From positions 71,040 through 135,039 of the forward strand of contig JAKAPS010000001.1 in assembly GCA_021806925.1 (NCBI GenBank): a stretch of 64,000 nucleotides of DNA. The letters run 5' to 3'. The notes beneath the pieces are model-generated. The model searched no databases and was not told the DNA's origin. It saw nothing but the letters and a program-made list of their open reading frames with translations. The stretch is from a bacterium. Lineage in GTDB: Bacteria; Patescibacteriota; Dojkabacteria; JAKAPS01. The translations under genes were made by a program, and so were the position numbers. Shown here piece after piece: positions 45,539-63,974 of the stretch (positions within the stretch are counted from its first letter, which is position 1; every line of letters begins with the position of its first letter).

Positions 45539-46386
45539 ACTTTAGGCTTTCTTTTTAAAATCTTAAAAAGCAAAAATATTGACGCTATTGCTGTTAATAA
45601 TAATATAAGTGCAATCAATTCATTATTAAAAGATAAAAAACCAACTGAACCATATCCATTTGAGAAATTAATCTTTGAATTGTAAGTACCATATTTCATA
45701 ATGAATACATGATTGCCAATAGGAAGACTTTGATCATTATAGAAGAACTTTATTCCTTCTGGAGTTTGTGATAGGTTTATGTAGCTGTTTATATTTTTTC
45801 CATCTAAAAGAAATTCAAATTCTCCTATATTCACATTGTTCTGATATATGAAATCACCCTGAAAGATAATACTGTTTCCCTGAATTCTAACATTGTTTTT
45901 TGGTGATATATTTTGAAATCCATCTGATATAACACTAAAATCACTTCCTATTGAAGCAGTAGACGTTGGAGTTAGTGTCGGAGTTGGAGTCGAGGTTTCT
46001 TTAACTATACCTGTGGTTGTGGTTGGAGTAACTGATATACTTGCTCCTGGACTGACATTACTTGAAGACACAGTAATACCAAAATTTTGTGTTTCAATTA
46101 CATTACCTCCATTTTCAAGAGCTATACTTACAGTATTACTGTTTCCAGAGTTGGTTGGTATTCCAGATAAAACATTATTCTTATTTAATTTCAACCAACT
46201 TGGCGAAGATAAAACGACTAAAGTTGCATTACCCCCGTAGTATGTAACATCATATGTATATTGAATCCCTACCGTTGCATAGAATACAGGAGAAGAAGTG
46301 AAGTACGATGAATCAGCGTATACATTCCCTTCTTGAAGAAAAAACATTAGCACAAGGAATGAAATTATATGCAATAAATTTTTCAC
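45535..46386 (-). CDS. Surface protein with He_PIG-type Ig-like domain, T/P-rich linker and C-terminal TM plus basic tail
   Basis: 283 aa. Signal peptide. SSPSWLKLNKNNVLSGIPTNSGNSNTVSIALENGG resembles the putative Ig (He_PIG) domain. TPTPTLTPTSTAS linker. C-terminal TM helix then KRKPKV, which is sortase-substrate-like architecture without LPXTG. Confidence 0.55.
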   Translation of the reverse strand: MKNLLHIISFLVLMFFLQEGNVYADSSYFTSSPVFYATVGIQYTYDVTYYGGNATLVVLSSPSWLKLNKNNVLSGIPTNSGNSNTVSIALENGGNVIETQNFGITVSSSNVSPGASISVTPTTTTGIVKETSTPTPTLTPTSTASIGSDFSVISDGFQNISPKNNVRIQGNSIIFQGDFIYQNNVNIGEFEFLLDGKNINSYINLSQTPEGIKFFYNDQSLPIGNHVFIMKYGTYNSKINFSNGYGSVGFLSFNNELIALILLLTAIASIFLLFKILKRKPKV

Positions 46387-46520
46387 CTTTATTATAGGTA
46401 TATATCATGAGGAAGGTTGGATTGTCAATTACATAACTTGACAGATATATTTTATGTAGTAATATGTTTTTACTATTATAAATAAAGGCTATAAAGAAAA
46501 TAAACAATATACAATAACAT

Positions 46521-48832: not shown

Positions 48833-50494
48833 ATGCTTAACGATTTTTTACTGAAAAAGGAGGTTATTACAAAGGAGCAACTTGAAGAGGTATTGTCTGT
48901 ATCAAATCAACAGCATAGCGATCCAATTGATGTGTTGATAGGGAAACAATATGTTGAACCTGTAAAGCTATTTTCATTAATTGCTGAATATTTTGGTGTT
49001 GAGTATGTCGATTTAAAGAATATTGAAATTCCAAGTGATGTAATAAAATTAATACCAAAAAGAATTGCGATAGAAAGGAAGATCATTCCATACAAGAAAG
49101 ATCCTTTTAAATTAAAGGTTGCAATGGTAAATCCTGCTGATATTCAATCAATTGAGTTCATTAAGAGGATGACTGGATATAACATTGATGCAAACTATAT
49201 ACCCGAGTCAGATTTCAGAGAATTACTAAAATACTACAGTTTGGATATAAAAGAAGAATTTAACAACCTATTAAAGAAGAATATTCAAGAAAGCAAAGCA
49301 TCTGGAAATAAGGACAGTGTTCCTGTTATCAAAATAACAGATATGATATTAAATGAGGCAATAAATGAAGAAGCGAGTGATATACATATGGAATCACTTG
49401 AATACGAAAGTATTGTAAGATTTAGAATTGATGGAATATTACATGATATTGAAATAATACCAAAAGATATTTTCAATTCAATTGTAGCAAGAATAAAGAT
49501 ACTAGCAAATTTAAAAATTGATGAACATAGATTACCTCAAGATGGAAGATTTAAGTTAACAATAAATGATAGAGGCGTATCTTTTAGAACAAGTATTATA
49601 CCTACCTTTTATGGTGAAAAGATTGTATTAAGGGTACTTGAAGAATCTGATAAAAAGTATTCACTTGAAGATTTGGGTTTTGCAAAAAGAGATTTAGATA
49701 AAGTACTTGAGAATATTAAGAAGCCACATGGAATGATATTAGTGACCGGTCCTACAGGAAGTGGAAAATCAACAACTTTAAATACAGTAATTAGTATATT
49801 AAATACTCCAGATGTAAACATAAATACAGTAGAAGATCCTATTGAATATGCAATGGCTAGAGTAAACCAAACTCAGGTTAATCCTTCTATTGGATTAACC
49901 TTCGCATCAACTCTAAGATCACTGTTAAGGCAGGATCCAAACGTAATACTAGTAGGTGAGATAAGAGATAAGGAAACAGCTGATATAGCAATTAATGCTG
50001 CAATGACAGGACACCTTCTTCTTTCAACACTCCATACAAATGACTCTGTCGGAGCTATACCAAGACTCATTGATATGCAAATCGAACCGTTCCTAATATC
50101 ATCAACATTGAATTTAATTATTGCCCAAAGACTAGTTAGAGTACTATGCCAAAGCTGTAAATTAAAAACATCTTTGTCTCAAAAGCAGATTGATGTATTA
50201 AAAGACACATTCAAAAACAATGTTAATTCTATGGAATTAATTGATAAAAACGAATTCTTTAAACCAGTTGGTTGTGATAAATGCAGAAATGGATATAGAG
50301 GTAGAATTGGAATATATGAAATAATTGAGGTTACTAATGAGATAAAAGAGTTAATAAATGAAAAAGCACCAGTAACCAGCTATATTGAAGTAGCAAAGAG
50401 AAACAATTTTAGAACAATGCAAGAAGATGGATTAGAGAAGGCATCTCTAGGAATAACATCTATTGAAGAAATATTGAGAGTAACAATGGAATAA
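48833..50494 (+). CDS. pilB: Type IV pilus assembly ATPase PilB (GspE family)
   Basis: N-terminal GSPII_E_N domain. Walker A GPTGSGKSTT. Asp box and Walker B (LRQDPNVILVGEIRD). His box (HLLLSTLHTN). Tetracysteine CQSC...CDKC. Confidence 0.9.
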   Translation: MLNDFLLKKEVITKEQLEEVLSVSNQQHSDPIDVLIGKQYVEPVKLFSLIAEYFGVEYVDLKNIEIPSDVIKLIPKRIAIERKIIPYKKDPFKLKVAMVNPADIQSIEFIKRMTGYNIDANYIPESDFRELLKYYSLDIKEEFNNLLKKNIQESKASGNKDSVPVIKITDMILNEAINEEASDIHMESLEYESIVRFRIDGILHDIEIIPKDIFNSIVARIKILANLKIDEHRLPQDGRFKLTINDRGVSFRTSIIPTFYGEKIVLRVLEESDKKYSLEDLGFAKRDLDKVLENIKKPHGMILVTGPTGSGKSTTLNTVISILNTPDVNINTVEDPIEYAMARVNQTQVNPSIGLTFASTLRSLLRQDPNVILVGEIRDKETADIAINAAMTGHLLLSTLHTNDSVGAIPRLIDMQIEPFLISSTLNLIIAQRLVRVLCQSCKLKTSLSQKQIDVLKDTFKNNVNSMELIDKNEFFKPVGCDKCRNGYRGRIGIYEIIEVTNEIKELINEKAPVTSYIEVAKRNNFRTMQEDGLEKASLGITSIEEILRVTME

Positions 50495-50495
50495 A

Positions 50496-51722
50496 ATGGC
50501 AGATTTTAAATATACATTTACAAAAGAGAATTCATATACTATTGAATCAAATGTTGTTAAAGCGACATCGAAAGAAGAAGCAATTGGACTAATTCCACCA
50601 GGGCTAAATGTAGTAGACATAACTGAGATAAAGACAAAGAAAAACGTTTCTTTATTTTCATCTAAAAATATTAAATTAGTCGACAAGGTTCTGTTCTTTG
50701 ACCATATGTCTCAGATGATTAAAGCGGGGCTTAGTATAAATGAAACACTTGAAGCTTTAATTGATGATAACGAGAATGAATATTTTAAATCAGTTATTAA
50801 AGACATAAAGTATGAGATTGAAGCTGGAGGGACATTTTCAAAAGCAATGAGTAAATACCCAAAAGTATTCTCAACACTTGAAGTGAAAATGATTGAAGTT
50901 GGAGAAATTACTGGAACACTTGAAGAGACTGCATATCAAATATCTATTCAGTCAAAAAAAGATTTTGAGCTAAGGAGTAAAATAAAAGGTGCATTGATAT
51001 ATCCAGAAATATTGTCAAGTATCATGGTACTTGCTGGTGTTGGATTAATTGTATTTGTTGTTCCTCAATTAAAAACATTTTTCATGCAGGCAAATATGCA
51101 GCTACCAATAACAACTCAAATATTAATTGATATAAGCACAATAATAACTGGATATTGGTATTTATTTGTTTTGGCAATCGCCTTAATTATATTTTTCTTT
51201 CCAAGACTTAAAAAAAACAAAGAGTTTGCAAATGGTCTTGACTGGGTCATACTAAGGACACCTATAATAGGAGAAATAACAAAAAAACTATCCCTTGCCA
51301 TATTTACAAGAACATTAGGTTCATTGCTAAAGTCAGGAGTTTCAGTAAATAAATCTATTGAGCTTACAGCCACAAGTATACCTAATTCTATTTATAGGTC
51401 TGCAGTTCTTGGTTTTACTCATGATATAGAAGAAGGAGTTCCATTGTATAAACTAATGGAAAAAAGAACTGATATATTCACGAATCTTTCAATAAGGATG
51501 GCTTTTGTAGGTGATAAAACTGGAAATCTTCCAGATATGCTTATAAATATCGCTGATTTTTATCAAAACCAAGTGAATGATACATTGTCAAATATATCTA
51601 CAATTATTGAACCTGTAATGCTGTTCATTATGGGAGGAGCCACACTTTTTATTGCATTAAGTGTTATTTTACCAATATATCAATTAACAAGTGGAATATC
51701 TGGAATGCAACCTGCTAAATAG
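50496..51722 (+). CDS. pilC: Type IV pilus inner-membrane platform protein PilC (GspF family)
   Basis: 408 aa. Two T2SSF repeats, three TM segments. Starts 2 bp after pilB. Confidence 0.85.
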   Translation: MADFKYTFTKENSYTIESNVVKATSKEEAIGLIPPGLNVVDITEIKTKKNVSLFSSKNIKLVDKVLFFDHMSQMIKAGLSINETLEALIDDNENEYFKSVIKDIKYEIEAGGTFSKAMSKYPKVFSTLEVKMIEVGEITGTLEETAYQISIQSKKDFELRSKIKGALIYPEILSSIMVLAGVGLIVFVVPQLKTFFMQANMQLPITTQILIDISTIITGYWYLFVLAIALIIFFFPRLKKNKEFANGLDWVILRTPIIGEITKKLSLAIFTRTLGSLLKSGVSVNKSIELTATSIPNSIYRSAVLGFTHDIEEGVPLYKLMEKRTDIFTNLSIRMAFVGDKTGNLPDMLINIADFYQNQVNDTLSNISTIIEPVMLFIMGGATLFIALSVILPIYQLTSGISGMQPAK

Positions 51723-52185
51723 GGAAAGATGTAAGATAAAAAGAAGAGGGTTCACCTTAATTGAGATACTTATTGTTATTGCAATAAGTGTTATTATTCT
51801 ATCAATAAGTATTCCGTCTATGGGTGAGCTTCTCTTCGTTTTTCAGCTTAATTCCTCACTTAATCAAACAGTATTTGAATTAGTAAAAGCAAGAGACCTT
51901 GCAATACAGAATTATAACGGAAACGAATATATTTCTGTATATATAGATAATAATTCGATTGAATTAATAAATGGAAATTCAATAAATGGAACATCAATAG
52001 AGAATATACCTTTAAGTTACGGAGTATCTATAACAGCAACCCCTAACTTTTTCTATTTTAGTGACATAACAGGCAATTGCTCAGCTCAATCAAATATTAA
52101 ACTTACAGCAGTAAATAAGGCTACTGACTTAATTTCTCTAAACACATTAGGAGCTATAAATGTAACATATAACTATGCACAATAA
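51691..52185 (+). CDS. Prepilin-type (type IV pilin-like) protein
   Basis: Class III signal: ...KRRGFTLIEILIVIAISVIILSI, that is G|FTLIE with Glu+5. 32-bp overlap with the pilC end. Leader is unusually long (24 aa) if the ATG at 51691 is used. Confidence 0.7.
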   Translation: MEYLECNLLNRERCKIKRRGFTLIEILIVIAISVIILSISIPSMGELLFVFQLNSSLNQTVFELVKARDLAIQNYNGNEYISVYIDNNSIELINGNSINGTSIENIPLSYGVSITATPNFFYFSDITGNCSAQSNIKLTAVNKATDLISLNTLGAINVTYNYAQ

Positions 52186-52687
52186 TAACTATAGCAACAA
52201 TGTGTACTATAAGAAAAATGGATTTTCACTAGTTGAGGTTTTAATATCAATTGTAATCATCTCAATAGCTTTTAGTTCTACTCTGTTCTTTGCACAAAAT
52301 GCGTTCTATGCAACAAATTCTTCTGGAAACTTCACACTCGCTCTGGAAATAATTAATTCACAAGCTGAAGCAATAAGACAGCTAAGAAGTCAATCATGGG
52401 ATAATTTAATCCCTGGAAGTTATTATGCAATATATAACAGCGTTTCAAATCCTCCAAATCAAATTCAAGGATGGGAATTAATTGCAGGAACTGGCGTTAT
52501 TGGAAATATGTCAATCGAAGATACTATATCTGTTCCATACAGAGCAGATAGTAATACACTCACGACTACAGGAACAACAGCTGATACAAACATGCGTATA
52601 ATACAAATTACCGCCTCCTGGACACAAAATGGAGTTAATTATTCAAAGACAGAATATGAATATCTATCAGACTGGAAACCATTTTAA
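52175..52687 (+). CDS. Prepilin-type protein (minor pilin candidate)
   Basis: KKNGFSLVEVLISIVIISIAF is a prepilin cleavage/methylation motif. 170 aa. Confidence 0.65.
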   Translation: MHNNNYSNNVYYKKNGFSLVEVLISIVIISIAFSSTLFFAQNAFYATNSSGNFTLALEIINSQAEAIRQLRSQSWDNLIPGSYYAIYNSVSNPPNQIQGWELIAGTGVIGNMSIEDTISVPYRADSNTLTTTGTTADTNMRIIQITASWTQNGVNYSKTEYEYLSDWKPF

Positions 52688-53162
52688 TCGAGGTTTCACT
52701 CTTATCGAAACTATAATCTATATTTCCATATTTATATTTATTTTAACAATTTCAATGTCATTTCTTTTAATAGAAACATTTGATAATACACAATTAAATG
52801 AGACAACAGTTCAGCAAATGACAGGCAGAGATTTATCATATACTATTGGAGAAATAGTAATGAGTGCGGAAAATATTTCTGAGCCTACATATGCAAATCC
52901 TACTTCATCATCTCTCCAATTAACTGATGCAAATTCAAATAACATAGATATCTATTTACAAAATAACACTGTATATGAAAAGATCAATTCAAATTCACCT
53001 ATAGATATTACTGGTAATATTTCAAAGGTCAACACATTAAATTTCATAATTGAATCACAGTCTGGTCAAACGCCAAGTATTGAAGTGTATATAGATATAA
53101 GTGCCCCAAATGGGTTATTTCCACAAAATTTTGATAATGTTTTCTCAAATAGGAAAGTTTAA
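52629..53162 (+). CDS. Prepilin-type protein (minor pilin candidate)
   Basis: NRGFTLIETIIYISIFIFILTI. Probable start at the internal Met (about 52656). Confidence 0.65.
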   Translation: MELIIQRQNMNIYQTGNHFNRGFTLIETIIYISIFIFILTISMSFLLIETFDNTQLNETTVQQMTGRDLSYTIGEIVMSAENISEPTYANPTSSSLQLTDANSNNIDIYLQNNTVYEKINSNSPIDITGNISKVNTLNFIIESQSGQTPSIEVYIDISAPNGLFPQNFDNVFSNRKV

Positions 53163-54477
53163 TAGAAACAAGAATATAGGGCAGATAATGGTTCTATCTA
53201 CTATTGTATTTTCAGCAATTCTAATAATTGTATCACTATCAATTGGTGAACTTTCTACTCAAAGCTATATTTCAACTGATAATTCAATATATTCAACACA
53301 AGCTCAATTTATTGCAGAAAGTGCAGTTGAAAATGCAATACTTGAATATGAACAGAATTCTTCATACAATGGAGGAACTTTCACAACTCCTTATGGATCT
53401 GCAACTGTAAATGTTAGTTACAATCAAACAAGCGATGAATTAACTGTAAATACAAGCTCAACAATAAAAGGTTATACAAAAAAATATTCTGTTGTAGTAT
53501 CGATTAATAACAATCCTCAAATAACAAACTATGCACTTTATTCAAACTCTTCACTGTATACAAATGACGCAAGTGTAGTAGGAAATTCATATGTAAATGA
53601 TAACTTTTATACATATTCTTCAACATTTTCTGGAAATATGCTCGCAATAGGAGCAGGAAATGGACTTGGTAATTATGCATATGATACCCAATTCAAAACT
53701 GTTTTAAATGTTAGCAATTCGGGGAATATATATGTATATAACAATACAAGAATAAAGAATTATACTTCTATCGAGAATACTACCTACTACAAGAACAATC
53801 TGTATAGTGATTCCACATCAAATTATGGAACAACAATACAAACTTCTTCACTTGGAAATCAATTAACATCTCCATCATTCAATTTTTCTCAAGCTGGAAC
53901 TCTAGCAAGCCAGAATGGAACATATTTTAATGATCTAAATGACTTTAATAATTATTTAAACTCTGTTGCTACAACTGTTAATGGTGAAACTGTATATAAG
54001 CTTCCAAGTGGAATATATTATGTTGATTGTAGCCTCTCATTTTTTGGATTCTGTATTAATACATTTAGTTTTTTAGACACTAATGGAGAAATATCTGGAA
54101 CAAATGTAAGCATTGTTTTAAATTTCCCAGTACTTTTTTATGGAAGCATAAACATTTCTTCTCCATATGAAAATAACAATGAATACTACCCTTCTCTTGC
54201 AATTAACGGATGGTCTATATTCCTAGGAACAAACAATCCCAATCAAAGCAACTATTTAATATTGAATGGATTACTATACATAAATGGAACAATTGATCTA
54301 TATGGCGTTTCAAACAGCAACACTGCAGATGTAAATGGAGCTATATGGAGTACAGACAATTTAAATTTATATAGTTATACTAACGTTGTATATAATTCAA
54401 CATATATGACTAATCTAGCTGGATTTAATTTCCCTGTTAATCAAAATTCTATTGTCAGTTGGACTGAATCTCCATGA
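53101..54477 (+). CDS. PilX-like large minor pilin / pilus-associated protein
   Basis: 458 aa. N-terminal GQIMVLSTIVFSAILIIVSLSIGEL resembles the PilX N-terminal hydrophobic helix. N/S/T/Y-rich body. Probable start about 53137. Confidence 0.5.
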   Translation: MPQMGYFHKILIMFSQIGKFNRNKNIGQIMVLSTIVFSAILIIVSLSIGELSTQSYISTDNSIYSTQAQFIAESAVENAILEYEQNSSYNGGTFTTPYGSATVNVSYNQTSDELTVNTSSTIKGYTKKYSVVVSINNNPQITNYALYSNSSLYTNDASVVGNSYVNDNFYTYSSTFSGNMLAIGAGNGLGNYAYDTQFKTVLNVSNSGNIYVYNNTRIKNYTSIENTTYYKNNLYSDSTSNYGTTIQTSSLGNQLTSPSFNFSQAGTLASQNGTYFNDLNDFNNYLNSVATTVNGETVYKLPSGIYYVDCSLSFFGFCINTFSFLDTNGEISGTNVSIVLNFPVLFYGSINISSPYENNNEYYPSLAINGWSIFLGTNNPNQSNYLILNGLLYINGTIDLYGVSNSNTADVNGAIWSTDNLNLYSYTNVVYNSTYMTNLAGFNFPVNQNSIVSWTESP

Positions 54478-55037
54478 AAAAAAATTAGCACTTAAGACCA
54501 AATGTATACTAATACATTACAATAGTTCTACTAGCTGTATAACATTAGTGTATGAAAAGAGTTTTGTTTACAAAATCAGTTGAACATATTGATGATTAGG
54601 ATACTATTGTTGTGACTGGAATGCGTCAAGTATGGAAAACCAACCCTCCTAAAACAGGTTTTTGATCATATAGCAAGTAGTAATAAACTATTTTTAGATC
54701 TTGAAAACCCTCTATCTATAAGAAAACATACCATCACTTCATATAAAATATAGCATATAAATTTTACTCTATATACTCTTATTTAGTGACAACACATTTT
54801 TTTGCAATTTTCGTTCTTTGTTCATATATATCAATACAAGCAAGATATTTTATATAAAAATTTCGCGAAAGATCCGATATAGAAACTTGCTTTTACAGTA
54901 CCAAAACGAGTCTATAAAAAATCAAACTGAATTTGTTTGTTTTGTTGTACGAACAAATAGCTTTTTTTTATAATTTCATTTGTATGCAAGTTCCACCTCT
55001 ATTTGTTAGAGTGTCATATCCCCTAATGTTATACAGT

Positions 55038-58037
55038 TCAACATAAATGAATATTTTCTCTGGATTCGCTGTTAACTAAAAGTTCATTGTTAGCTAAACC
55101 AAAGTCATAAGATGTTTCATCAATATTACACCCACCCCATTCAACAACTGTAAATCCTTTTCTACTTATTCTTTTTATTTTCTGTTCTTCGATTTCAACT
55201 TTACCCTGAGTTTTTTTAAACACTATAAAAACCCTTATTAGTACATCAGGTATCGGATTAATATTCAATTTTGCCAATTTTTCATATTTCATCCCCTGAA
55301 ATGCCACAAGAGACCATTCATTTTTTTTAATTATTGGTCCCCAATATGTGATGAAGTCCTGCGATTCTGAAGAGTTTAAACCAAATTCTTTAGTCCTCCT
55401 TTCCAGGAAATCATATACATCTTTAGAGTGTACAGAAAAGCCACATGATAAATCCCAATTTACTGGGTTATTAAATCCATCCCAAAATATATATTTGTAT
55501 TCTTTTCCTTTATTTGTTAGCGTTCCATTTTTTGCTACATGAATATTCCACTCATTTTTATTATTAATTAATGGATACGTATCTCCTATTTTCCCTTTAA
55601 AATCAAGCCCTATATTAACATTTAGTCCTTGTTTTTTATCTGTATAAAAATAAATCACAGGTTTACGTGTTACACTAAAATTAGGATCTTTGAAATTTTC
55701 TATATCATAAATAATTGGTATTTGACTACTTTCACATTGAACAAGAACTGCCTGTTTACGACTTGGATATTCTACTCTATATATATTATATTTTTGAGTT
55801 TTACCATTCTTATCTTGTTCTACTACACTAATCTTAAATGTTGGCATAAAGTTAGTACTCTCTATTTTTTCTTTTTTTTCATTTAATCTGCGAACTTGAC
55901 TTATCGTCAGACCAAATTCTGAAATTTCTATATTATTAAATTTCCCATCAGTTGATATTTTAATATCGCTTTGACCATCTGTTCCGGTTATACTAAGACT
56001 TCTACTCACCTCCTCATAAATTGTCTGATAATCCAATGGACTTCTTCCGAGGTCTAGACTACATAATTCTAGTGGGACATTAGGAAGTACTAAAGTATTT
56101 TCTGTAGTTGACCTAAAGTTAACAAGATTTTGTGTTAAAAATCTCCTTATTGCTATTACTGCATTTAATTTAAGGTTATATGGTAATTTAATGTCATTTG
56201 CTTGTGTAGATGGGTTATCATTTAATGATTTTATATACTTCCTAACATCATCAAAACAAATAGTTTCTAAGATACCTCTATATTTAGAGTTTAAAAGTCT
56301 ATAAGCAAGATCTTCTATGGCAGATTCTTGACTATTATTATCACCATATATTTCATTATCTTTACTAACTTCAGCACTCGTTTTAGTTAATACTTCACCT
56401 AAAAATGGCATCCCGCTATTAGTTTTTAATAATTCTATAATTGATTTTTTCAAATCATTAGGAAGCTCACTAGGTGACCCTATATTACTACCTCCACAAT
56501 ATGCACCTATACTATATTGAGTATTACCAATATCATGTGATATGATTACATCTAAATAATCCTTTATTGCTCCTAATAACACACTGTCATTAATTGTTGA
56601 TAATCTCATTGACGGATAACCGTTTATATATATACTTATATCTTCAGTGTTTAATTCATTTCTCCCTAATGGAAACTCAATAGAGAACATTCTTGATTCA
56701 CCAAAATAAGGACTACTATTAATTTGGGGTCCATTAAAATTCACCTTCAACATTATTTCATCTGGATCATTAATAATCAGAACCACACTTTCTATGTTTA
56801 GATTATTACCTTTTCCACTTTCTGTTTTTAATACGCTATAAGGAACTATTAGCATATTTCTTATTTCTTCCTGTTTATTACTATTTGTTTGAATGTTATT
56901 ATTTTCTTGAGTTTGTAAGTTCGTGGGATTATTAGAAATATTTTTAAACAAATTTAAGAATGGGAAAGATGGATATTTTGCTTCTAATATACTTTGTAAA
57001 GACTTTATTTTGTCTAATAAATTGCTATCATTTTGGTACGGAATTATTCCATCAGATGATTTAATTTTTAGTTCAGTACAATTGCCTCCTATGTGCAAAT
57101 TTCCTGTACTTCCAACTCCATTAAATATATCTAATAGTAAACCCTTTATATTATTAGATATTGAATTATTATATCTAAAGTTAAACAAGTCAATAATATT
57201 AGTTTCAATAATGCCGACTCTCCCAATATCCATTCTAAAATACACATTATTTATATTTAAACCTGAATTATTATTAAGTGGAAGTATTATAGTAATCGGG
57301 TTTGGAATTGAATATGAACCTCTTCTTAAAACATGTACATTGAATTCAATTGTTTCCTTAGTATTATCTAACGTAATACCTTCAACAACAAACTCCTTAT
57401 TTTTTGTGCTTTGCGTAGTAGTATCTTTCAATAATTTATCAAAAAATTCCTGTGCTTTTTTTTTCTGTTCTTCAAGTTTCATTTCCTCTTCTAATCTATG
57501 TTGTTCATCTATTTTTTTTTGTTCATTAAGACATTTTATTCTTTGTTCTTCTTGTTCTTTTATTCGTCTTATTATATACCTGTTTGATTTATTAAAGTAT
57601 TCTGTTTGTATAGAAATTTTTGATTGATCACTTTCTGACAATCTTGAAGTATATTTTAATGATGATACAAAGCCTACTAGTTCTTCACTATTATGACTAT
57701 TAAAATTGTTAGTTAAAAATGTTAAATCATCAGATATTACAATACCATTTTCTTTTATGTATTCAATTATATTCTTAATATTAGTAAGGTGTTTAATTTC
57801 ATCTTCTCCCTTAGAATATTCTCTTTTGTATTTACCATTATTATATGGGTTTTGATCTTTAGCCACCAATATAATCTGACTGTATATAGGATTTTTATTT
57901 AATACAATTAAAACAGCACTTGCATCGAATTCATCAATTAAATCATTAGGAATTAATAGATAATAAGAAGCAGTAGGTGTAGCACCAAGACTTTGTTCAC
58001 AAGCAATTCTTGTTAATACTATTCCTTCTACTTCCAC
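55038..58037 (-). CDS. Large uncharacterised cytoplasmic protein (999 aa)
   Basis: Long ORF with protein-like composition and no TM segments. Coiled-coil segment around residues 150-210 (QEEQRIKCLNEQKKIDEQHRLEEEMKLEEQKKKAQEF). No P-loop, nuclease, protease or other motif that I can recognise. Confidence 0.6.
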   Translation of the reverse strand: MEVEGIVLTRIACEQSLGATPTASYYLLIPNDLIDEFDASAVLIVLNKNPIYSQIILVAKDQNPYNNGKYKREYSKGEDEIKHLTNIKNIIEYIKENGIVISDDLTFLTNNFNSHNSEELVGFVSSLKYTSRLSESDQSKISIQTEYFNKSNRYIIRRIKEQEEQRIKCLNEQKKIDEQHRLEEEMKLEEQKKKAQEFFDKLLKDTTTQSTKNKEFVVEGITLDNTKETIEFNVHVLRRGSYSIPNPITIILPLNNNSGLNINNVYFRMDIGRVGIIETNIIDLFNFRYNNSISNNIKGLLLDIFNGVGSTGNLHIGGNCTELKIKSSDGIIPYQNDSNLLDKIKSLQSILEAKYPSFPFLNLFKNISNNPTNLQTQENNNIQTNSNKQEEIRNMLIVPYSVLKTESGKGNNLNIESVVLIINDPDEIMLKVNFNGPQINSSPYFGESRMFSIEFPLGRNELNTEDISIYINGYPSMRLSTINDSVLLGAIKDYLDVIISHDIGNTQYSIGAYCGGSNIGSPSELPNDLKKSIIELLKTNSGMPFLGEVLTKTSAEVSKDNEIYGDNNSQESAIEDLAYRLLNSKYRGILETICFDDVRKYIKSLNDNPSTQANDIKLPYNLKLNAVIAIRRFLTQNLVNFRSTTENTLVLPNVPLELCSLDLGRSPLDYQTIYEEVSRSLSITGTDGQSDIKISTDGKFNNIEISEFGLTISQVRRLNEKKEKIESTNFMPTFKISVVEQDKNGKTQKYNIYRVEYPSRKQAVLVQCESSQIPIIYDIENFKDPNFSVTRKPVIYFYTDKKQGLNVNIGLDFKGKIGDTYPLINNKNEWNIHVAKNGTLTNKGKEYKYIFWDGFNNPVNWDLSCGFSVHSKDVYDFLERRTKEFGLNSSESQDFITYWGPIIKKNEWSLVAFQGMKYEKLAKLNINPIPDVLIRVFIVFKKTQGKVEIEEQKIKRISRKGFTVVEWGGCNIDETSYDFGLANNELLVNSESRENIHLC

Positions 58038-58076
58038 ACCTTTTTCTTTAATAAGTTCACCACACTCAATTCCACG

Positions 58077-58355
58077 TTATATAACATTCGCAATATCACT
58101 TTTTTCTTCCTTAAAAGACATATTAATTTCATATGTATTATCTTTACGAGAAATCATAGTTTCTTTTAACTCTTCTATTTTTTTAATTTTTTCTTCTAAT
58201 TCTGTGTTATATTTTTTCTCAACATTTTCATTTGTAGGTTGAATTTTATCTGCCTCAGGGTTAGAATGACTAGTTATCATTCTAACTACTTTAGTAAAAG
58301 CATCATGAATTTTATATAAAAGCCAACCTTTACCTGCCTGTTCTTTTCTTGTCAT
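58077..58355 (-). CDS. Small charged protein, co-oriented immediately upstream of the 999-aa gene
   Basis: 92 aa. Its stop lies 39 bp before the start of the 999-aa ORF. K/E-rich helical C-terminus. Confidence 0.4.
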   Translation of the reverse strand: MTRKEQAGKGWLLYKIHDAFTKVVRMITSHSNPEADKIQPTNENVEKKYNTELEEKIKKIEELKETMISRKDNTYEINMSFKEEKSDIANVI

Positions 58356-58457
58356 ACCATTTTATCTTACCACTTTTTATAGTAAATTCATATAGTATTG
58401 CTATTGAAATACCATTATATATGCGATATAATATATCCTATAAGCATAGGTAAAGAC

Positions 58458-59108
58458 ATGGAACAATTTAAATATCCACTTATTACTATAAGGGAAACTC
58501 AAAGGATATTAAATATTGCATCAACCATTGGCATAGTGTTATTATTAACCCCGCTTGCTTCTCCTGTTAGTCTACTGGTACCTGTTTCTGGTTGTTTAAT
58601 TTCTGCCGGATTAATAGGTACATCCATATTACTAAATAAAAAAGCTAAGGAACAAGATAAAAAAATAAATGAATATTTACTTAATTCCATAGACAAAGGT
58701 GTACTTTCATTATTAGATTATATGAATTTAGCAACCAATGTATTTAATGATTTAGAAGCCTACAAAAAATTAAGACTAAACAGCACAGAAGAAATTAACA
58801 AATTCAAAACTGATATTGGAAAAATCATTTCGAATATTGACTTTAATAATAATAAAATAAAAAATAAAAATGCTAAATATAATGATAAATATTATTTTTT
58901 ATTGACAGATATAATTAACCAATTGATATCCTACAAAACTAAAAAAGAATATGCTAATAAATTTGATTCTATTTACAATACAGAAAAGAGAAAAAGATTT
59001 ATGGATAAATATCTTCAAAAGGGATATAGTGTTGGATATATTGAACTTATATATATAGTAGATGAAATAATAGAAAATTATACGGTTAGTAATATAATAA
59101 ACATTTAA
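58458..59108 (+). CDS. Hypothetical two-TM membrane protein
   Basis: ORF-track start is 58398; the likelier start is MEQFKYPL at 58458. Two adjacent hydrophobic helices (IASTIGIVLLLTPLASPVSLLVPVSGCLISAGLIGTSILL), then a K/N-rich tail. Confidence 0.4.
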   Translation: MEQFKYPLITIRETQRILNIASTIGIVLLLTPLASPVSLLVPVSGCLISAGLIGTSILLNKKAKEQDKKINEYLLNSIDKGVLSLLDYMNLATNVFNDLEAYKKLRLNSTEEINKFKTDIGKIISNIDFNNNKIKNKNAKYNDKYYFLLTDIINQLISYKTKKEYANKFDSIYNTEKRKRFMDKYLQKGYSVGYIELIYIVDEIIENYTVSNIINI

Positions 59109-59631
59109 AAAGATCTTAGCCCAATTAATATAATTAGTTTAAAAAAATTATCTTTTTTTATAATAAAATCTTAAAATTATATAAAATTTTTACTGTCTGT
59201 TCGTCTGTAAATAATTTTAATAAATATATTCTAAGAATAAATTTGACTGACATTTAACAATCTACTTGTATATACTCAATAATTAAACTGTATATAATCT
59301 TGAAAAGAATTACGTGTTTTTACAATAAAATATCATCGCGTGATTTTACACTTTTTATAGAAAGATATTCTTTTGATTGGAAAATTAGCATTGAATATTT
59401 CATATATATACAGTAGTGACTAAACTTCATCGTACATTTTGCATTCTGTAATATAGTTGTTGCAGAAGCATAAGACATAGATTCCCAATTTTGTGCTGTC
59501 AAAAAGTCTGCAATGTTTAGATTGTAAGGTATAAAGTAAAGATTTTTAATAATCACTTTCAATACATTTACACACCGTTTGTGTTATTAAATATTCCGTT
59601 AAATGTAAGATAATATATTGACTTTCTCATA

Positions 59632-60500
59632 TTATTCAGTTCCGGGATTCTTTGCTACTCTACCAATACCAATTGCAGATAAATGCTCATTTATCTTTAC
59701 TTTATAAAGAGCCTCTTGACTAAAATTAAAAGTAGGATCATCAATTGCTCTTGCACCTATCTTTAACTCAGTATCAATTTTTAGAAAACGAAGATTTGAT
59801 AATAATCTCTCAATTTCAGGCTGAATTTTTAATGCAACACCACGGCTCAAATCCCCAAAGTGTTGAGCAACTTCTTCAATAGTTTTGTATTTCTGTATTA
59901 AATCCTTTGCTGTTTTAGGACCGATACCTTGTATTCCAAAAATATTATCAGTAGGATCTCCTTTAATTGCCAGATAGTCTCTGTAATGAGGAGGTTCAAA
60001 TCCCCATTTTTTTATAAAATCTTTTTTTTTGTAATAAATACAGCCTCAACTCTAATATCACGTACTAGAGTAATGCGTGTGAGCAAAGTCAAAGTCGTTC
60101 GATGAAACAAATGCTCTACCATATCTTCTTGCAATTTCACTTGCCAATGAACCAATCACATCATCGGCCTCATAATTTGGAGGCTCTATCCATTCAATAT
60201 TACATCGCTCAAGAATGGCTTTAATCATTGGAAGTTGTACATACATGCCTGTATCGTGTAATTCACGAGTCGCTTTGTACTCATGCCGTTCATCAATCTT
60301 GTTTTGAATTCCCGTCTCAGAATCAAATATGATTATGATTTTTCTGGATCTACGGCTTCCGTTATTCGTCTAAGTATTGCAAAAAAGCCATAAACAGCAT
60401 TAACTTTGACACCTTTGAAATTAGCAGCTTCAGGCACACTAAAATATGAACGAAATAAGTAATTACTACCATCTACAATTAAAGTATTTCTCATAGTCAT
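59632..60500 (-). pseudogene. 5'-3' exonuclease (Pol I N-terminal/FEN-like), disrupted by at least two frameshifts
   Basis: By manual translation, three different reverse frames each carry consecutive parts of one FEN-like protein. Frame 1 has MTMRNTLIVDGSNYLFRSYF...NAVYGFFAILRRITEAVDPEKS*. Frame 2 has ...FDSETGIQNKIDERHEYKATREL...EPPNYEADDVIGSLASEIARRYGRAFVSS.... Frame 3 has ...DYLAIKGDPTDNIFGIQGIGPKTAKDLIQKYKTIEEV.... The frame changes fall at A/T homopolymer runs (about 60345-60352 and the T9 run at about 60027-60035). The ORF-track fragments 59632..59850 and 60058..60246 are pieces of this gene. Confidence 0.65.
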
Positions 60501-60848
60501 TATGCATAAAATAAGTATACAATAACTAGAGACACTTTGGGATTATTCGACTTTTGTTTTTCTATTCGCAACCAGCATGCCAATGTTCCATACATAAAAA
60601 AAATGAGTTATTAATTCTAATATCCATTATTTAAGTCATTTGTCCAATATTAATTTTCTCACACACAAAAAGCTATGAAATAAAAATATGGATAAATAGT
60701 AATAATGAAGAAAAATTGAACTGAAGACATGTCTAGTTCACAAGTCTTCCCTAGACAATGGAATTATAAATTACTATTTTAATTCCTTTTACTGATTTAT
60801 TTAATTTGTGAGTAACTAATTTCTTGTTATAAAAAATTCCACTTCATA

Positions 60849-61418
60849 CTAATTTATATATTTCTTCTTAAATTTATTAACAAATCTATACATATTAGGA
60901 TCCATCTTTTGTATAGGTGTGCTTAATATATTTTCAATTGTAAGCCAATGAATGTTATAGAATTCCTCATGACTAAAATTCAAAGTTAATTCTGAATTAT
61001 ATTCTAGTGTGTACCATATACTTACATCCGTATGACCAGCCGTTAATCCAACTGTATCTGAAAAAGTTAAAAACATTGGGTTATTATCACCATTGAGAAA
61101 CTTTGCCTCTATGCCAAGTTCCTCCCCACATTCCCTACAAGCTGTGTCTTTAGGGTCTTCATTTACTTCAACATGCCCGCCAGTTGGTAATAGTAATTGT
61201 GCTTTTTTATGATCAACTAAAAGCATTTTCTTTTTTATCTTATCGTAAAGAACAAAATATGAGACCAAGTGTTTTTTGGGAATATCTGGCTTTTGTATAC
61301 GGTAAATCTCAACACCACTATCAACCCAATTCAAGGTGTTATTTATATCATCATATTCAATAGAATCATATGGATTTATTTTTTTGATTTGCTGTTTTAA
61401 GTATTCTTTACTATTCAT
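60849..61418 (-). CDS. Nudix hydrolase
   Basis: Nudix box GGHVEVNEDPKDTACRECGEELGIEA (G-x5-E-x7-REUXEEXGU pattern). 189 aa. Confidence 0.8.
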   Translation of the reverse strand: MNSKEYLKQQIKKINPYDSIEYDDINNTLNWVDSGVEIYRIQKPDIPKKHLVSYFVLYDKIKKKMLLVDHKKAQLLLPTGGHVEVNEDPKDTACRECGEELGIEAKFLNGDNNPMFLTFSDTVGLTAGHTDVSIWYTLEYNSELTLNFSHEEFYNIHWLTIENILSTPIQKMDPNMYRFVNKFKKKYIN

Positions 61419-61456
61419 TTATATATAAGTCTTAAAATGTAAACATAAAAAAACTG

Positions 61457-61531
61457 TGGAGCTGACAGGACTCGAACCTGCGACCTAATGTATGCCATAC
61501 ATTCGCTCTAACCAAACTGAGCTACAGCCCC
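61457..61531 (-). tRNA. tRNA-Ala (anticodon GGC)
   Basis: Reverse complement GGGGCTGTAGCTCAGTTTGGTTAGAGCGAATGTATGGCATACATTAGGTCGCAGGTTCGAGTCCTGTCAGCTCCA folds as a cloverleaf. 7-bp acceptor stem with the G3:U70 Ala identity pair. D-arm GCTC/GAGC. Anticodon stem AATGT/ACATT with loop AT-GGC-AT. T-arm with TTCGAGT loop. CCA not encoded. Confidence 0.85.
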
Positions 61532-61556
61532 TAAAGATACGTGTATATGTTTACAA

Positions 61557-61592
61557 CTGATTTTATATTAATACATTTATTTTTACAATACT
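61557..61592. repeat. 36-bp direct repeat copy 1 (promoter-like element upstream of tRNA-Ala)
   Basis: ctgattttatattaatacatttatttttacaatact. On the minus strand it reads agtaTTGTAAaaataaatgtattaataTAAAATcag, that is TTGTAA-N17-TAAAAT, a good sigma70-like promoter pointing into tRNA-Ala about 25 nt downstream. Confidence 0.7.
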
Positions 61593-61616
61593 ATCAATGA
61601 TATATATTTTCTTTGT

Positions 61617-62000
61617 TTATTCTACTTTAAAGTTGTCAGTTAAATGATTAAAAAGATTAAGAGTTTCAGGTAATTTTTCATATATATCTATTGCAAGAGA
61701 TTCATTATATGTGTGAGATGTTAAGTTTCGCATATCAATAATATCCAGCCATTTTGTATCGTACTGTATAACACCTCTTTTATATGCTTGTCTAAATATT
61801 TCCTTAGGAGATGAATATATTGAAACACCTTCGTATTCTTCAAGATAGGCCTTTAATAATTTCCATGATAAATCAACTGTAATTTCGAATCTTTGTATTG
61901 CACTGTCTCTAACAATATCTGTTTCAGGAATTGATAAAACATCACTGAGACGCATTTTAGCCATATTAAATTTTTCAAGTAGTATCTTTGTTTTATCCAT
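61617..62000 (-). CDS. hepT: HEPN-domain toxin (HepT / HI0074 nucleotidyltransferase-substrate-binding family)
   Basis: 127 aa. R-x4-H motif in RNLTSHTY near the C-terminus. 8-bp overlap with the upstream MNT gene. Confidence 0.75.
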   Translation of the reverse strand: MDKTKILLEKFNMAKMRLSDVLSIPETDIVRDSAIQRFEITVDLSWKLLKAYLEEYEGVSIYSSPKEIFRQAYKRGVIQYDTKWLDIIDMRNLTSHTYNESLAIDIYEKLPETLNLFNHLTDNFKVE

Positions 62001-62340
62001 TAATATATTCTATATTTTTCATAGCTACATTTTTAAAAGCTGTTGATACCGTAGCAAAATCAACGATATCTATAATATACATGGTATGAATTTCTTCAAT
62101 ATCATCTTTTATCTTCCTCATTATCTCGGGCTTTACAATGTTATTTCCATTTATACCAACATCAATATCTGAATATTCTGTTCCTCTTCCATTAACACGA
62201 GAACCAAAGAAAAAGATATTGTATTCATTCTTATTCAAATATTTATATACAATTTCTGAGATCTCTTTTTTTAGTTTTTCAACAGAATAATGCTCAAGCC
62301 TCACACCTGTTATTATATCATTTACTAATTGAAAGTTCAT
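61993..62340 (-). CDS. mntA: Minimal nucleotidyltransferase (MNT) antitoxin
   Basis: 115 aa. GSRVNGRGTEYSDIDVGI is the GS-x9-13-DxD nucleotidyltransferase motif. Confidence 0.8.
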   Translation of the reverse strand: MNFQLVNDIITGVRLEHYSVEKLKKEISEIVYKYLNKNEYNIFFFGSRVNGRGTEYSDIDVGINGNNIVKPEIMRKIKDDIEEIHTMYIIDIVDFATVSTAFKNVAMKNIEYING

Positions 62341-62410
62341 AATGCGTGTGTTCCCGCTATATCACATTTGCACTATATGAAATACATTGAGATATATATA
62401 AATGGTACAT

Positions 62411-62446
62411 CTGATTTTAGATTAATACATTTATTTTTACAATACT
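62411..62446. repeat. 36-bp direct repeat copy 2 (same promoter-like element upstream of mntA-hepT)
   Basis: ctgattttagattaatacatttatttttacaatact: 35 of 36 positions match copy 1. Same TTGTAA-N17-TAAAAT on the minus strand, about 70 nt upstream of the MNT gene start at 62340. Confidence 0.7.
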
Positions 62447-62468
62447 GCTGATTTGTATTAACATTATA

Positions 62469-63974
62469 TTGATGCCTGTTGATAATGTATACATATTGGA
62501 TTTTAACTATACATTTATAAGTTTGGGTAAATTGTCTTTGAAAAAAAATGGTACAATTGATATACAATTTATTGATTATGAAAAGATTCCTGTAAGTACA
62601 TTAACAGGAGGTGTAGTAAGAAATAGCTCTTTAGTAGAAAAAACAATACAAAAAATATTGTTAAGACACAAAACAAAAAAAAGAATATTTGTTCTTGCAG
62701 TAATACCAGATGAAAAGATATACATACAATCTCTTGATTTACCAACAATGCCTAATGAAAAGATTGAATCCTCTATTCTTTTCAAATTACAGACCCTTAT
62801 TCCTGTTCCTTTAAAAGATGTTTACTGGAATTATTACATAACAAAGAGAAATAAGAATTTCATTTCTACAATAATTTTTGCGGGAAACAAGGAAAGCATT
62901 GACTCATTTTTCATACCACTTAAAAACATTGATGTATTTCCAATTGGCTTTATAAATACATCAAGTTCCATTAGCTCATTAATTAAGGATGAAAATGCCA
63001 TAATATTTAATATTGAGGATACTCAAAGTGTAATCTCAATAAAACAGGATGGAATAATAAAATTCTCAACAAATCAACATGTAGGAATAAATGGTATAAT
63101 AAAAATACTAGATGAATCATTCAATATTGATGATAGGAAGAGTTTTGAAATAATAAAGGAGATAGGATTAGATAATGTAGATGAACAAACAAAAGGGAAA
63201 ATAAAAGATATTTTTATAGGTCTTGAAGATGATATAAGAAAGGCTTCTACAAGCACAAATATAAAAAATGTATTTGTAACAGGTCCTGGATTAATATTAA
63301 AGAAATTACTTACAGATCTTAACATTCCCGATGTAACTATTAATGAACTAAAAGTAGATAATATAAATTCTGATTTACTAAATAAATTCACAGCAATAAT
63401 AGGTTGTGCTAAATATATAAGGAAATTGCCACTTCCCGTTGTACTTCAGAAAGAGGCAAAACAAAATATATATTTTCAAGTATTTAAGGACTCTGCGGAA
63501 CAATTTCTAAAATATATTTCGTTTAACTTAATAATAGTTTCATCAATTCTTGCAATAATAATTTATTACGGAAATATCCAGAACTCATTAATTCAAGCAA
63601 GAGTAAATACACTTAATTCTGAAATTAACTTAAACAGTTCAAAATATACTCCAGAAATATCAAAATTAAATACTGCTTTAAACGGTATATCCTATGCACA
63701 AAATCAATACGTCGATTGGACTGGATTCTTAAGTCAAATGCCTTCACTTGTACCAACTGGTGTTACACTTAATACCCTATCAGTAATACCTCAAAACAGC
63801 ATTTTAACAGTTCAAATAAGCGGACTTGCAACAACAAGAGCTGATTTACTAACTTATCTAGATAAATTAGAAAATAATTCATTATATCTCTCAAACGTAT
63901 CGCTACCAATTGAATCAATACAGAATTCAAATAATATTCAATTTTCAATAAATGCAGATATTACAAAATTATGA
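62469..63974 (+). CDS. Type IV pilus assembly protein PilM fused to a PilN-like TM/coiled-coil module
   Basis: 501 aa. N-terminal roughly 330 aa is actin-like (ILDFNYTFISLG...; NVFVTGPGLILKKL). Then a TM helix (LIIVSSILAIIIYYG) and a PilN-like periplasmic segment. Confidence 0.65.
   Translation: MMPVDNVYILDFNYTFISLGKLSLKKNGTIDIQFIDYEKIPVSTLTGGVVRNSSLVEKTIQKILLRHKTKKRIFVLAVIPDEKIYIQSLDLPTMPNEKIESSILFKLQTLIPVPLKDVYWNYYITKRNKNFISTIIFAGNKESIDSFFIPLKNIDVFPIGFINTSSSISSLIKDENAIIFNIEDTQSVISIKQDGIIKFSTNQHVGINGIIKILDESFNIDDRKSFEIIKEIGLDNVDEQTKGKIKDIFIGLEDDIRKASTSTNIKNVFVTGPGLILKKLLTDLNIPDVTINELKVDNINSDLLNKFTAIIGCAKYIRKLPLPVVLQKEAKQNIYFQVFKDSAEQFLKYISFNLIIVSSILAIIIYYGNIQNSLIQARVNTLNSEINLNSSKYTPEISKLNTALNGISYAQNQYVDWTGFLSQMPSLVPTGVTLNTLSVIPQNSILTVQISGLATTRADLLTYLDKLENNSLYLSNVSLPIESIQNSNNIQFSINADITKL

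Follow-up and report, generated by a model that had tools for sequence, protein, structure and literature searches.

A probable lineage-specific accessory mosaic at an intergenic junction of the type IV pilus gene cluster in an ultra-small Patescibacteria bacterium

Variable hotspots, or islets between core genes, are sites where a conserved gene pair flanks different and unrelated cargo depending on the lineage, and the pilin accessory-gene region of Pseudomonas aeruginosa, located between pilA and tRNA-Thr, is an example. Genomic islands have been catalogued in Patescibacteria (PMC12455944). For HEPN/MNT toxin-antitoxin pairs, the RX4HXY and GSX10DXD motifs have been defined, and the PF08780/PF01909 pairing is counted within Class I (PMC7641770). 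Here we describe an 8-kb run of unrelated genes that sits within the type IV pilus (T4P) gene cluster of an ultra-small Patescibacteria/CPR bacterium, in a window (the whole stretch of DNA analysed) of 64,000 nucleotides. Overall, we regard it as a modestly interesting variable junction and not as a novel system.

On the left, the T4P flank comprises PilB (48833-50494), PilC (50496-51722), three prepilins (51691-53162) and, closing this block, a PilX-like gene of 458 aa on the plus strand (53101-54477) that aligns end to end with genes of 441-478 aa at the equivalent position in all relatives. On the right, an intact pilM/N fusion on the plus strand (62469-63974) begins with TTG at 62469 or with ATG, the start that was called, at 62472; after it, outside the window, come genes of 180 and 91 aa, rsmA, jag, yidC, rnpA and rpmH, an arrangement shared with relatives. 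Our gene calls agree with the first-pass annotation on these boundaries, and every feature that it listed was found, with offsets of no more than a few bases from the positions it gave. Neither flanking gene is truncated, so the insertion lies cleanly between genes. Coding density is 66% within the insert vs 90% outside and, as TGA is a real stop codon in this host, genetic code 25 does not explain the non-coding and pseudogene calls.

The comparison with other genomes supports the proposal that accessory DNA splits an otherwise conserved T4P cluster. In at least three related Patescibacteria genomes (L005/L006, L007/L008 and L009/L010) the pilus genes are contiguous and only 28-42 nt separate PilX-like from pilMN. 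The same junction is filled by a flippase gene in L002 and L049, holds two giant LamG/DUF2341 genes in L011 and is rearranged in L003. Up to 10 kb from the T4P locus, no relative carried any of the insert genes, and no tRNA was found at the PilX-like/pilMN junction of the relatives, which indicates that the tRNA-Ala belongs to the insert and was not a pre-existing target. The nearest relatives are distant (PilC identity of at most 57%) and no 'empty site' strain was found. Relative to these genomes, the 8-kb segment is truly an insertion specific to its lineage.

We consider it fairly probable that the segment is a lineage-specific accessory mosaic, gathered at a single intergenic T4P junction, and not an intact mobile element. 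Its content is mosaic and would amount to at least three unrelated modules. The first of them would be an ORFan block, made up of a stand-alone 999-aa protein, a 92-aa ORF and a two-TM ORF, plus the neighbouring non-coding segment framed by inverted repeats. The latter lies in a 560-bp stretch (54478-55037) lacking any ORF of at least 60 aa, which yielded no Rfam match and, for its translated fragments, no Pfam match. It had been described as AT-rich and non-coding; the second term holds, but the first was overstated, as its GC content (0.27-0.29) is only slightly under the window mean of 0.30, the true AT trough (GC 0.18) being at about 58750-59250. Within this stretch, a 502-bp segment (54535-55036) has inverted repeats at its two ends (54535-54553 and 55018-55036); their 14-nt perfect core was matched in one of 500 shuffles and is single-copy within the window. 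The minus-strand fold gave a z of -2.7.

The 999-aa protein (55038-58037, minus strand, a gene call) carries neither a signal peptide nor a TM segment. The search for homologues suggested in the first-pass annotation uncovered a small family and a widespread C-terminal domain, with no match in Pfam, NCBIfam, PHROG, PADLOC or PDB sequences. By exhaustive HMMER, relatives P0122-P0130 matched from about residue 620 or, in the case of P0122, over the full length; these are long proteins, and one of them, P0123, bears a name that assigns it to a Patescibacteria MAG. The C-terminal domain (55113-55676, minus strand; about residues 788-975, some 185 aa) displays the motifs RKPVIYLYP, YxYLFWDG, DFIxYWxP and VVEWGG and is very widespread, although it has no family model and no solved homologue. 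The neighbourhoods of the 999-aa gene relatives are unrelated to each other. Several of them include toxin-antitoxin, Fic or recombinase genes. A K/E-rich ORFan of 92 aa (58077-58355, minus strand), to which no family could be assigned, lies upstream of the 999-aa gene. The two had been taken as a gene pair and both are indeed called as genes, but the pairing is not conserved: the 999-aa relatives lack the 92-aa gene (tblastn against their 47 loci), have no conserved adjacent partner, and no other insert gene co-occurs with them in those loci (462 kb). The two-TM ORFan (58398-59108, plus strand, 216-236 aa; an independent gene call starts at 58458 and gives 216 aa) shows the expected hydrophobic stretch at about residues 36-80, with no family match, no viral relative and no relative detected in the 47 loci.

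The second module would be a housekeeping-like block with a decaying 5'-3' exonuclease, a Nudix hydrolase and tRNA-Ala(GGC). The exonuclease (PolI N-terminal/FEN-like; about 59632-60500, minus strand) is a pseudogene with three frame disruptions, two of which fall in A-runs and all of which recur in a second assembly; once rebuilt, its 289 aa match NF004397/TIGR00593/PRK14976 (E 7e-58 to 3e-44). The 189-aa Nudix hydrolase (60849-61418, minus strand; PF00293, E 3e-12) retains an intact Nudix box (GX5EX7REXXEEXG, read from the translation), and the tRNA-Ala(GGC) (61456-61531, minus strand), detected by ARAGORN and Rfam (RF00005, 65.3 bits), is the sole tRNA within the window. That these are housekeeping-type genes could suggest that nothing horizontal took place, and that translocation or inversion brought a native segment, with the tRNA-Ala, Nudix, exonuclease and lineage-specific ORFs, into the pilus cluster. 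In favour of this, codon usage and GC3 of the insert genes lie inside the host distribution. A GC and tetranucleotide check revealed a marginal shift (GC 0.279 in the insert vs 0.302; tetranucleotide distance at the top of the window's range, not past it). Also, the L003 genome shows the junction acting as a rearrangement breakpoint, and in other genomes the 999-aa gene has ordinary chromosomal relatives, one of them beside dnaG-rpoD. However, the decay of a native, essential-type exonuclease would be unexpected unless it were redundant, genome collection scans for orthologue positions in relatives gave no match, and a separate event would be needed for the toxin-antitoxin cassette, which is flanked by a duplication of its own. 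We therefore hold a purely internal rearrangement to be unlikely. Under the mosaic reading that we prefer, each module might have come by horizontal transfer or by translocation within the genome; with a composition only marginally different, foreign origin is demonstrated for no module.

The third module of such a mosaic would be a 0.8-kb MNT-HEPN cassette. The HEPN toxin (61617-62000, minus strand; HI0074/NTase_sub_bind family, PF08780, E 7e-30) scored 96.6 bits against TIGR01987, over the cut-off of 55.8, and carries RX4HXY as RNLTSHTY. The MNT antitoxin, a nucleotidyltransferase (61993-62340, minus strand; PF18765 and PF01909), carries GSX10DXD (GSRVNGRGTEYSDID) and reached 36.7 bits with MntA_antitoxin, under the cut-off. 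Thus, HEPN passes the HI0074 subfamily model, and both proteins stay under the NCBIfam HepT/MntA equivalog cut-offs. The two genes overlap by 8 nt. Judging from these motifs and domains, the two proteins most likely act as a Class I HepT/MntA-type module (HI0074/HI0073; type VII), in which MNT would AMPylate the tyrosine of the HEPN RX4HXY motif and so restrain the RNase.

A direct repeat brackets exactly this cassette, as had been noted, although its length is not 36 bp but 41 nt with 39/41 identical positions. Copy 1 (61552-61592) precedes the 5' end of tRNA-Ala by 21 nt, and copy 2 (62406-62446) precedes the MNT start by 66 nt and pilMN by 23 nt; these are two copies in the window vs none expected by chance. 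Each contains TTGTAA-17-TAAAAT aimed at the tRNA-Ala (copy 1) or at MNT (copy 2), and copy 1 displays promoter-like hexamers on the plus strand as well as on the minus strand, even though such matches were not enriched over shuffles (70 found vs 62 expected). Judged only by position, the repeat looks like a putative duplicated promoter region between tRNA-Ala and pilMN. The cassette may have landed in this short region and duplicated at least 41 nt of it, so that one repeat copy would remain with the toxin-antitoxin operon and pilMN and the other with tRNA-Ala. Loss of the cassette would then free the toxin, which could stabilise an otherwise decaying region, and pilMN and the genes that follow, severed from the pilB-to-PilX-like transcription unit, would need a promoter of their own.

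The first-pass annotation had proposed an integrated element anchored at tRNA-Ala, that is, a single mobile element or genomic island that entered at this gene and is now partly decayed, with the toxin-antitoxin pair as addiction module plus cargo. The absence of the segment in relatives, the low coding density, the joint presence of a tRNA, a toxin-antitoxin pair, a pseudogene and a direct repeat, and the classical geometry in which the bulk of the insert lies 3' of the tRNA are all in keeping with such an event. Yet the segment, its flanks and the adjoining 4 kb outside the window, where it had been advised to look for an integrase, are devoid of integrase, recombinase and transposase genes. 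Neither is there a partial tRNA copy elsewhere in the window, nor a significant repeat, att-like or other, joining the two ends of the segment. The only real direct repeat is limited to the toxin-antitoxin cassette, the tRNA belongs to the insert, codon usage is host-like, and no phage, plasmid or viral-contig relatives of the insert were found. A single integrated element is thus quite unlikely, and the anchoring at tRNA-Ala finds no support.

A decayed prophage remnant would account for the decay and low coding density, as a tRNA, a Nudix hydrolase, a 5'-3' exonuclease, large ORFans and a toxin-antitoxin pair are common phage cargo; moreover, Nudix matches PHROG nudix families (E 7e-12) and a phage search with the exonuclease gave 169 matches at about 30% identity. 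Nevertheless, these represent generic, domain-level similarity, structural, terminase, integrase and repressor genes are missing, IMG/VR scans with the Nudix, exonuclease, HEPN, two-TM protein and 999-aa family gave no relatives, and the tRNA was the sole match of the insert DNA to phages, all of which makes this origin very improbable.

The chances are slimmer still of a novel defence or conflict system centred on the 999-aa protein and the adjoining 92-aa product, whether or not the two-TM protein takes part. It is true that these uncharacterised genes adjoin the HEPN/MNT pair in a variable region and that, as mentioned, relatives of the 999-aa gene can be found close to toxin-antitoxin, Fic or recombinase genes. 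Against this, there is no conserved neighbourhood, and PADLOC detected no defence system in the segment apart from one toxin-antitoxin pair, so that the label of defence island is not sustained. Furthermore, the C-terminal domain occurs mostly in proteins with an N-terminal hydrophobic (signal or anchor-like) segment, some of them fused to cell-wall-binding or glycoside-hydrolase domains, a poor fit to a cytoplasmic defence effector. We see no sign, therefore, of an intact mobile element or of a new defence system. Finally, a chimeric join, conceivable in a low-complexity, AT-rich region of a metagenome-assembled contig, can be dismissed as extremely improbable, since the sequence was recovered in four contigs with the 999-aa gene (NCBI, ENA and Logan assemblies), the independent Logan assembly reproduces insert and frameshifts base for base (100% identity over 18,963 bp, both junctions included), and both junctions are in intergenic DNA between intact genes.

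Set against known systems, the 502-bp segment resembles MITE-like non-autonomous elements in being short, non-coding and AT-rich with terminal inverted repeats around a 14-nt perfect core, but it differs in having no visible target-site duplication, a single copy in 64 kb and no related sequence in any fetched locus. The cassette shares with Class I HepT/MntA modules the MNT gene upstream of and overlapping HEPN, the domain pairing, both motifs and the small size of its proteins (115 and 127 aa), and departs from them in its scores under the equivalog cut-offs and in the 41-nt duplication resembling the tRNA/pilMN promoter region; to our knowledge, no flanking promoter-region duplication has been described for HepT/MntA modules. 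In comparison with variable hotspots, the insert lacks an integrase, an att site and a strong compositional signal, its tRNA is internal and not a pre-existing target, and its cargo is antisense to the operon and splits it, whereas the flippase and LamG giants of the relatives are co-oriented with the operon. The likeness lies in the combination of a tRNA and a toxin-antitoxin module, in the site in or beside a T4P locus, in the intact flanking genes and in a conserved gene pair, PilX-like and pilMN, between which several relatives carry nothing and others unrelated cargo or a rearrangement.

The segment at 54478-62460 is a mosaic insert, placed at a junction of the type IV pilus cluster that is recurrently variable in Patescibacteria. 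The gene content previously assigned to it was borne out by the ORF map, the tRNA scan and the family scans, in a window of about 0.30 GC whose proteins find their closest homologues in Patescibacteria/CPR MAGs. The genes for PilB, PilC and three prepilins are followed by a PilX-like gene ending at 54477. The stretch 54478-55037 carries no detectable gene, and beyond it lie the genes of a 999-aa (55038-58037) and a 92-aa protein, both on the minus strand, then a two-TM ORF, a 5'-3' exonuclease split into three ORF pieces, an intact Nudix gene, tRNA-Ala(GGC), and MNT and HEPN genes that overlap; the pilM/N fusion begins at 62469. An independent Logan assembly reproduces this arrangement exactly, down to the frameshifts. 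Genetic code 25 (UGA read as Gly) was ruled out, as TGA terminates 12 of the 47 long ORFs at positions that agree with homologues; TGA is therefore a real stop codon, and the non-coding and pseudogene calls are not genetic-code artefacts. Translated fragments of the non-coding stretches had no match in Pfam, and an Rfam scan in E-value mode returned the tRNA only. The deepest AT trough of the region (58750-59250, GC 0.18) sits between the 3' end of the two-TM gene and the region downstream of the exonuclease pseudogene, and no gene or RNA was found in it.

To judge the junction between the PilX-like gene and pilMN, we used the genomic surroundings of the closest PilC homologues (41-57% identity). 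The two genes are contiguous, with a gap of 28-42 nt, in the related loci L005/L006, L007/L008 and L009/L010, where two small genes and then rsmA, yidC, rnpA and rpmH come after pilMN; this gene order also runs on past the right edge of the window. The closest clade (L002 and L049) carries one Polysacc_synt flippase gene at this junction, L011 carries two giant DUF2341/LamG genes and the window the 8-kb mosaic, while in L003 the pilus cluster is broken past the PilX-like gene. None of the island genes, nor the island DNA, was found within 10 kb of the pilus locus of any relative, and both genes flanking the island are full length. The first-pass annotation was thus right that the pilus locus is split here. 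Since the island is absent near the pilus loci of the relatives and the junction cargo varies, the junction is recurrently variable and the 8-kb segment is a cleanly intergenic, lineage-specific insertion.

The cargo of the relatives is co-oriented with the operon (L011, 14087-21242; L002, 13982-15397; L049, 4917-6050, in locus coordinates) and may serve surface or pilus-associated functions. The giant proteins of L011 measure 1396 and more than 1423 aa, and the flippases of L002 and L049 are 64% identical to each other; remnants of this flippase gene were sought in the window and none was found. The pilus cluster of the relatives has a second interrupted junction, between pilB and pilC, where L005-L011 carry two to five extra genes (at about 6.5-10 kb in locus coordinates) with a recurring reverse-strand set of an AAA_14/DUF4143 ATPase, an NDH2-like oxidoreductase and, in most cases, a GGDEF protein; pilB and pilC are adjacent in the window and in L002 and L003. 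Another variable spot is the left edge of the cluster: at 45535-48635, between a solute-binding-protein gene and pilB, the window carries on the minus strand a 283-aa ORFan and a 704-aa PF04185 phosphoesterase that also has a CarboxypepD_reg-like domain, and the closest relatives (L002 and L003) have a He_PIG-domain protein in place of this pair.

The clearest signs in the segment are those of decay. Coding density is 0.66 within it against 0.90 elsewhere in the window, and the exonuclease shows three frame disruptions. Rescue of this gene by programmed or transcriptional slippage was ruled out, as two of the breaks lie within A-runs and the third lies outside them, and as the out-of-frame segment holds three stop codons.

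We then weighed the reading of the segment as an integrated element anchored at the tRNA gene, as the first-pass annotation had it. Composition deviates no more than marginally, in GC (0.279 against 0.302) and in tetranucleotides (distance 0.0139, the maximum among non-overlapping windows being 0.0131), and the per-gene codon-usage divergence of the island genes lies within the host range for their length class. In Pfam, NCBIfam and PHROG searches no integrase, recombinase or transposase was found among the ORFs of the island or its flanks, and the gene adjoining tRNA-Ala is the Nudix gene. A blastn-short search with the tRNA and 40-nt flanks found no portion of the tRNA gene repeated elsewhere; the sole match within the gene was a 17-nt self-complementary one to its own stem, and the others, of at most 13 nt, map to the AT-rich flanks. 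The att-like repeats expected at the ends were sought as well, and the left and right ends share no significant repeat (best 12-15 nt, at E >= 0.03), the only real direct repeat bracketing just the 0.8-kb toxin-antitoxin cassette. Because the relatives have no tRNA at the junction, tRNA-Ala is cargo and not the target. Searches of phages and plasmids with the island DNA gave generic tRNA matches only, five island proteins or families had no relatives among the IMG/VR viral contigs scanned, and nothing in these three collections went past generic domain or tRNA similarity. On this evidence the island is not a tRNA-anchored mobile element.

Nor is it a defence island, as had also been proposed. 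PADLOC gave no significant match to a defence model among the island proteins; the scores were weak (E about 1e-2 to 5e-6) and reflected generic NTase or Nudix similarity, and the 999-aa protein and HEPN had no PADLOC match, even a weak one. The further suggestion of a novel system, with the 999-aa and 92-aa genes as a pair, fails on the gene contexts. Those of the 999-aa relatives P0122, P0123, P0125 and P0271 are all different, the contexts seen among relatives being unrelated to one another (Fic with ParE/Phd; dnaG-rpoD; glyA (SHMT) with a serine recombinase; a PIN toxin-antitoxin pair), none of the other island genes of the window lies beside a relative in the 47 loci fetched (462 kb), and tblastn with the 92-aa and two-TM proteins had no match in them. 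The 999-aa gene therefore stands alone and its 92-aa neighbour is no conserved partner; no new multi-gene system is anchored at the island.

The 999-aa protein itself had no match in Pfam, NCBIfam, PHROGs, PADLOC or the PDB sequences, and a word-index search retrieved the query alone, whether it was run with the single sequence or with a family alignment of 10 sequences. Its resulting label of orphan was overturned by exhaustive HMMER, which found thousands of relatives; orphan calls from indexed searches are hence unreliable for low-complexity proteins of AT-rich genomes. A very widespread domain spans residues ~788-975; the 5,716 representative clusters obtained at E <= 1e-3 refer to this C-terminal ~185-aa module (more than 5,700 clusters when grouped at 50% identity). 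A handful of long proteins (P0122-P0130), one of them named from a Patescibacteria MAG, resemble the 999-aa protein over far more of its architecture. For the C-terminal domain no Pfam or NCBIfam model was found in any of the 33 members tested, nor any sequence relative in the PDB. Its predicted fold is confident (pLDDT 90.9) and had no match in a Foldseek search of the PDB (best E 0.34); among viral structures it matched just one, that of an uncharacterised Terrestrivirus protein. An N-terminal hydrophobic segment is present in 101 of the 147 complete top matches of this domain (a lipobox-like motif in 24 of the 101), and the fusion partners include a BlaR1-type M56 peptidase, GH9 with dockerin, choline-binding repeats and ankyrin repeats, which suggests that most proteins with the domain probably carry it outside the cytoplasm. 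No signal peptide is present in the long family to which the window protein belongs. Modelled at full length with AF2, the 999-aa protein gave no usable structure (pLDDT 52.7), and a BLASTP self-comparison detected no internal repeats in it. The C-terminal module could be a novel fold, for binding or for catalysis, that works at the cell surface, and the 999-aa protein could be exported non-classically for the interaction of episymbiont and host.

The first-pass annotation had placed a 36-bp direct repeat around the HEPN/MNT pair; the bracketing held and the length did not, as the repeat measures 41 nt (61552-61592 and 62406-62446, 39/41 identity). These are its only two occurrences, where chance predicts 0 copies. 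The first ends 21 nt upstream of tRNA-Ala and the second is 66 nt upstream of MNT; each copy has TTGTAA-17-TAAAAT on its minus strand and a promoter-like pair on its plus strand, that of copy 2 pointing into pilMN; promoter-like matches are not enriched over shuffles in DNA this rich in AT. Were the cassette and one copy of the repeat taken out, what remained between tRNA-Ala and pilMN would be a compact promoter region reading divergently into both. From these positions, the simplest reading is that the cassette inserted between tRNA-Ala and pilMN and duplicated the promoter region, and homology to promoter regions could be the means by which this small cassette inserts.

These results point to a mosaic, now in decay, to which several events probably contributed. 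Its contents are ORFans, a Nudix gene, a tRNA and a single functional-looking HEPN/MNT module, and each module may stem from horizontal transfer or from translocation within the genome. The nearest available relatives of the window are distant, and scans of genome collections with PilMN peptides and a tRNA-Ala pattern gave no match, hence no orthologues of the island genes were placed in relatives. In ultra-small episymbiotic bacteria, type IV pili play a central part in taking up DNA and attaching to the host. That one junction of the pilus gene cluster repeatedly takes up genes as unrelated as a flippase, giant LamG proteins and an 8-kb mosaic, and that the pilB-pilC junction is interrupted in relatives too, indicates that these "streamlined" genomes still hold permissive sites for gene gain and decay, and the comparison of the junction gives a concrete set of cargo genes that possibly alter how the pilus or the cell surface works. 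Among the by-products, the one best suited to reuse is the widespread C-terminal domain, with its confident predicted fold, no family model and no solved homologue. We consider it unlikely that one joint reading holds in full, by which the junction would be a clade-wide cargo site of Patescibacteria, the 999-aa cargo would define a giant signal-peptide-less family whose widespread, probably extracytoplasmic C-terminal module is perhaps a new cell-surface fold, and the toxin-antitoxin cassette would insert by promoter homology.

As a whole, the mosaic insert is of an already known kind, a variable region or genomic islet. Within its 560-bp non-coding stretch, a 502-bp segment (54535-55036) is bounded by inverted repeats with a perfect core of 14 nt (CTGTATAACATTAG), a length reached in 1 of 500 shuffles, the right arm stopping one base before the stop codon of the 999-aa gene. 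The segment is single-copy in the window and in the fetched loci, and no target-site duplication was seen. It is at most a candidate MITE-like relic. The HEPN/MNT pair can be placed more closely. Class I HepT/MntA (type VII) modules were defined by Yao et al. as neighbouring MNT (PF01909 clan) and HEPN (PF01934 or PF08780) genes with the motifs RX4HXY and GSX10DXD, and in them MntA poly-AMPylates a tyrosine beside the RNase motif (PMC7641770). In the window the two neighbouring genes overlap by 8 nt and match PF08780 (HEPN, E 7e-30) and PF18765 and PF01909 (MNT, E 4e-10 and 1e-7), and their translations carry RNLTSHTY, which fits RX4HXY, and GSRVNGRGTEYSDID, which fits GSX10DXD. The pair is therefore like Class I modules in its Pfam pairing and in both motifs, whereas the scores for the NCBIfam equivalogs NF047751 HepT_toxin (22.8 bits) and NF047752 MntA_antitoxin (36.7 bits) lie below the cut-off of 60 set for each, and HEPN passes TIGR01987, the HI0074 subfamily (96.6 bits, cut-off 55.8). 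Since the equivalog cut-offs were missed, we file the pair as a Class I module of the HI0073/HI0074 type, which, judged by its domains and motifs, most likely works as Class I HepT/MntA modules do.
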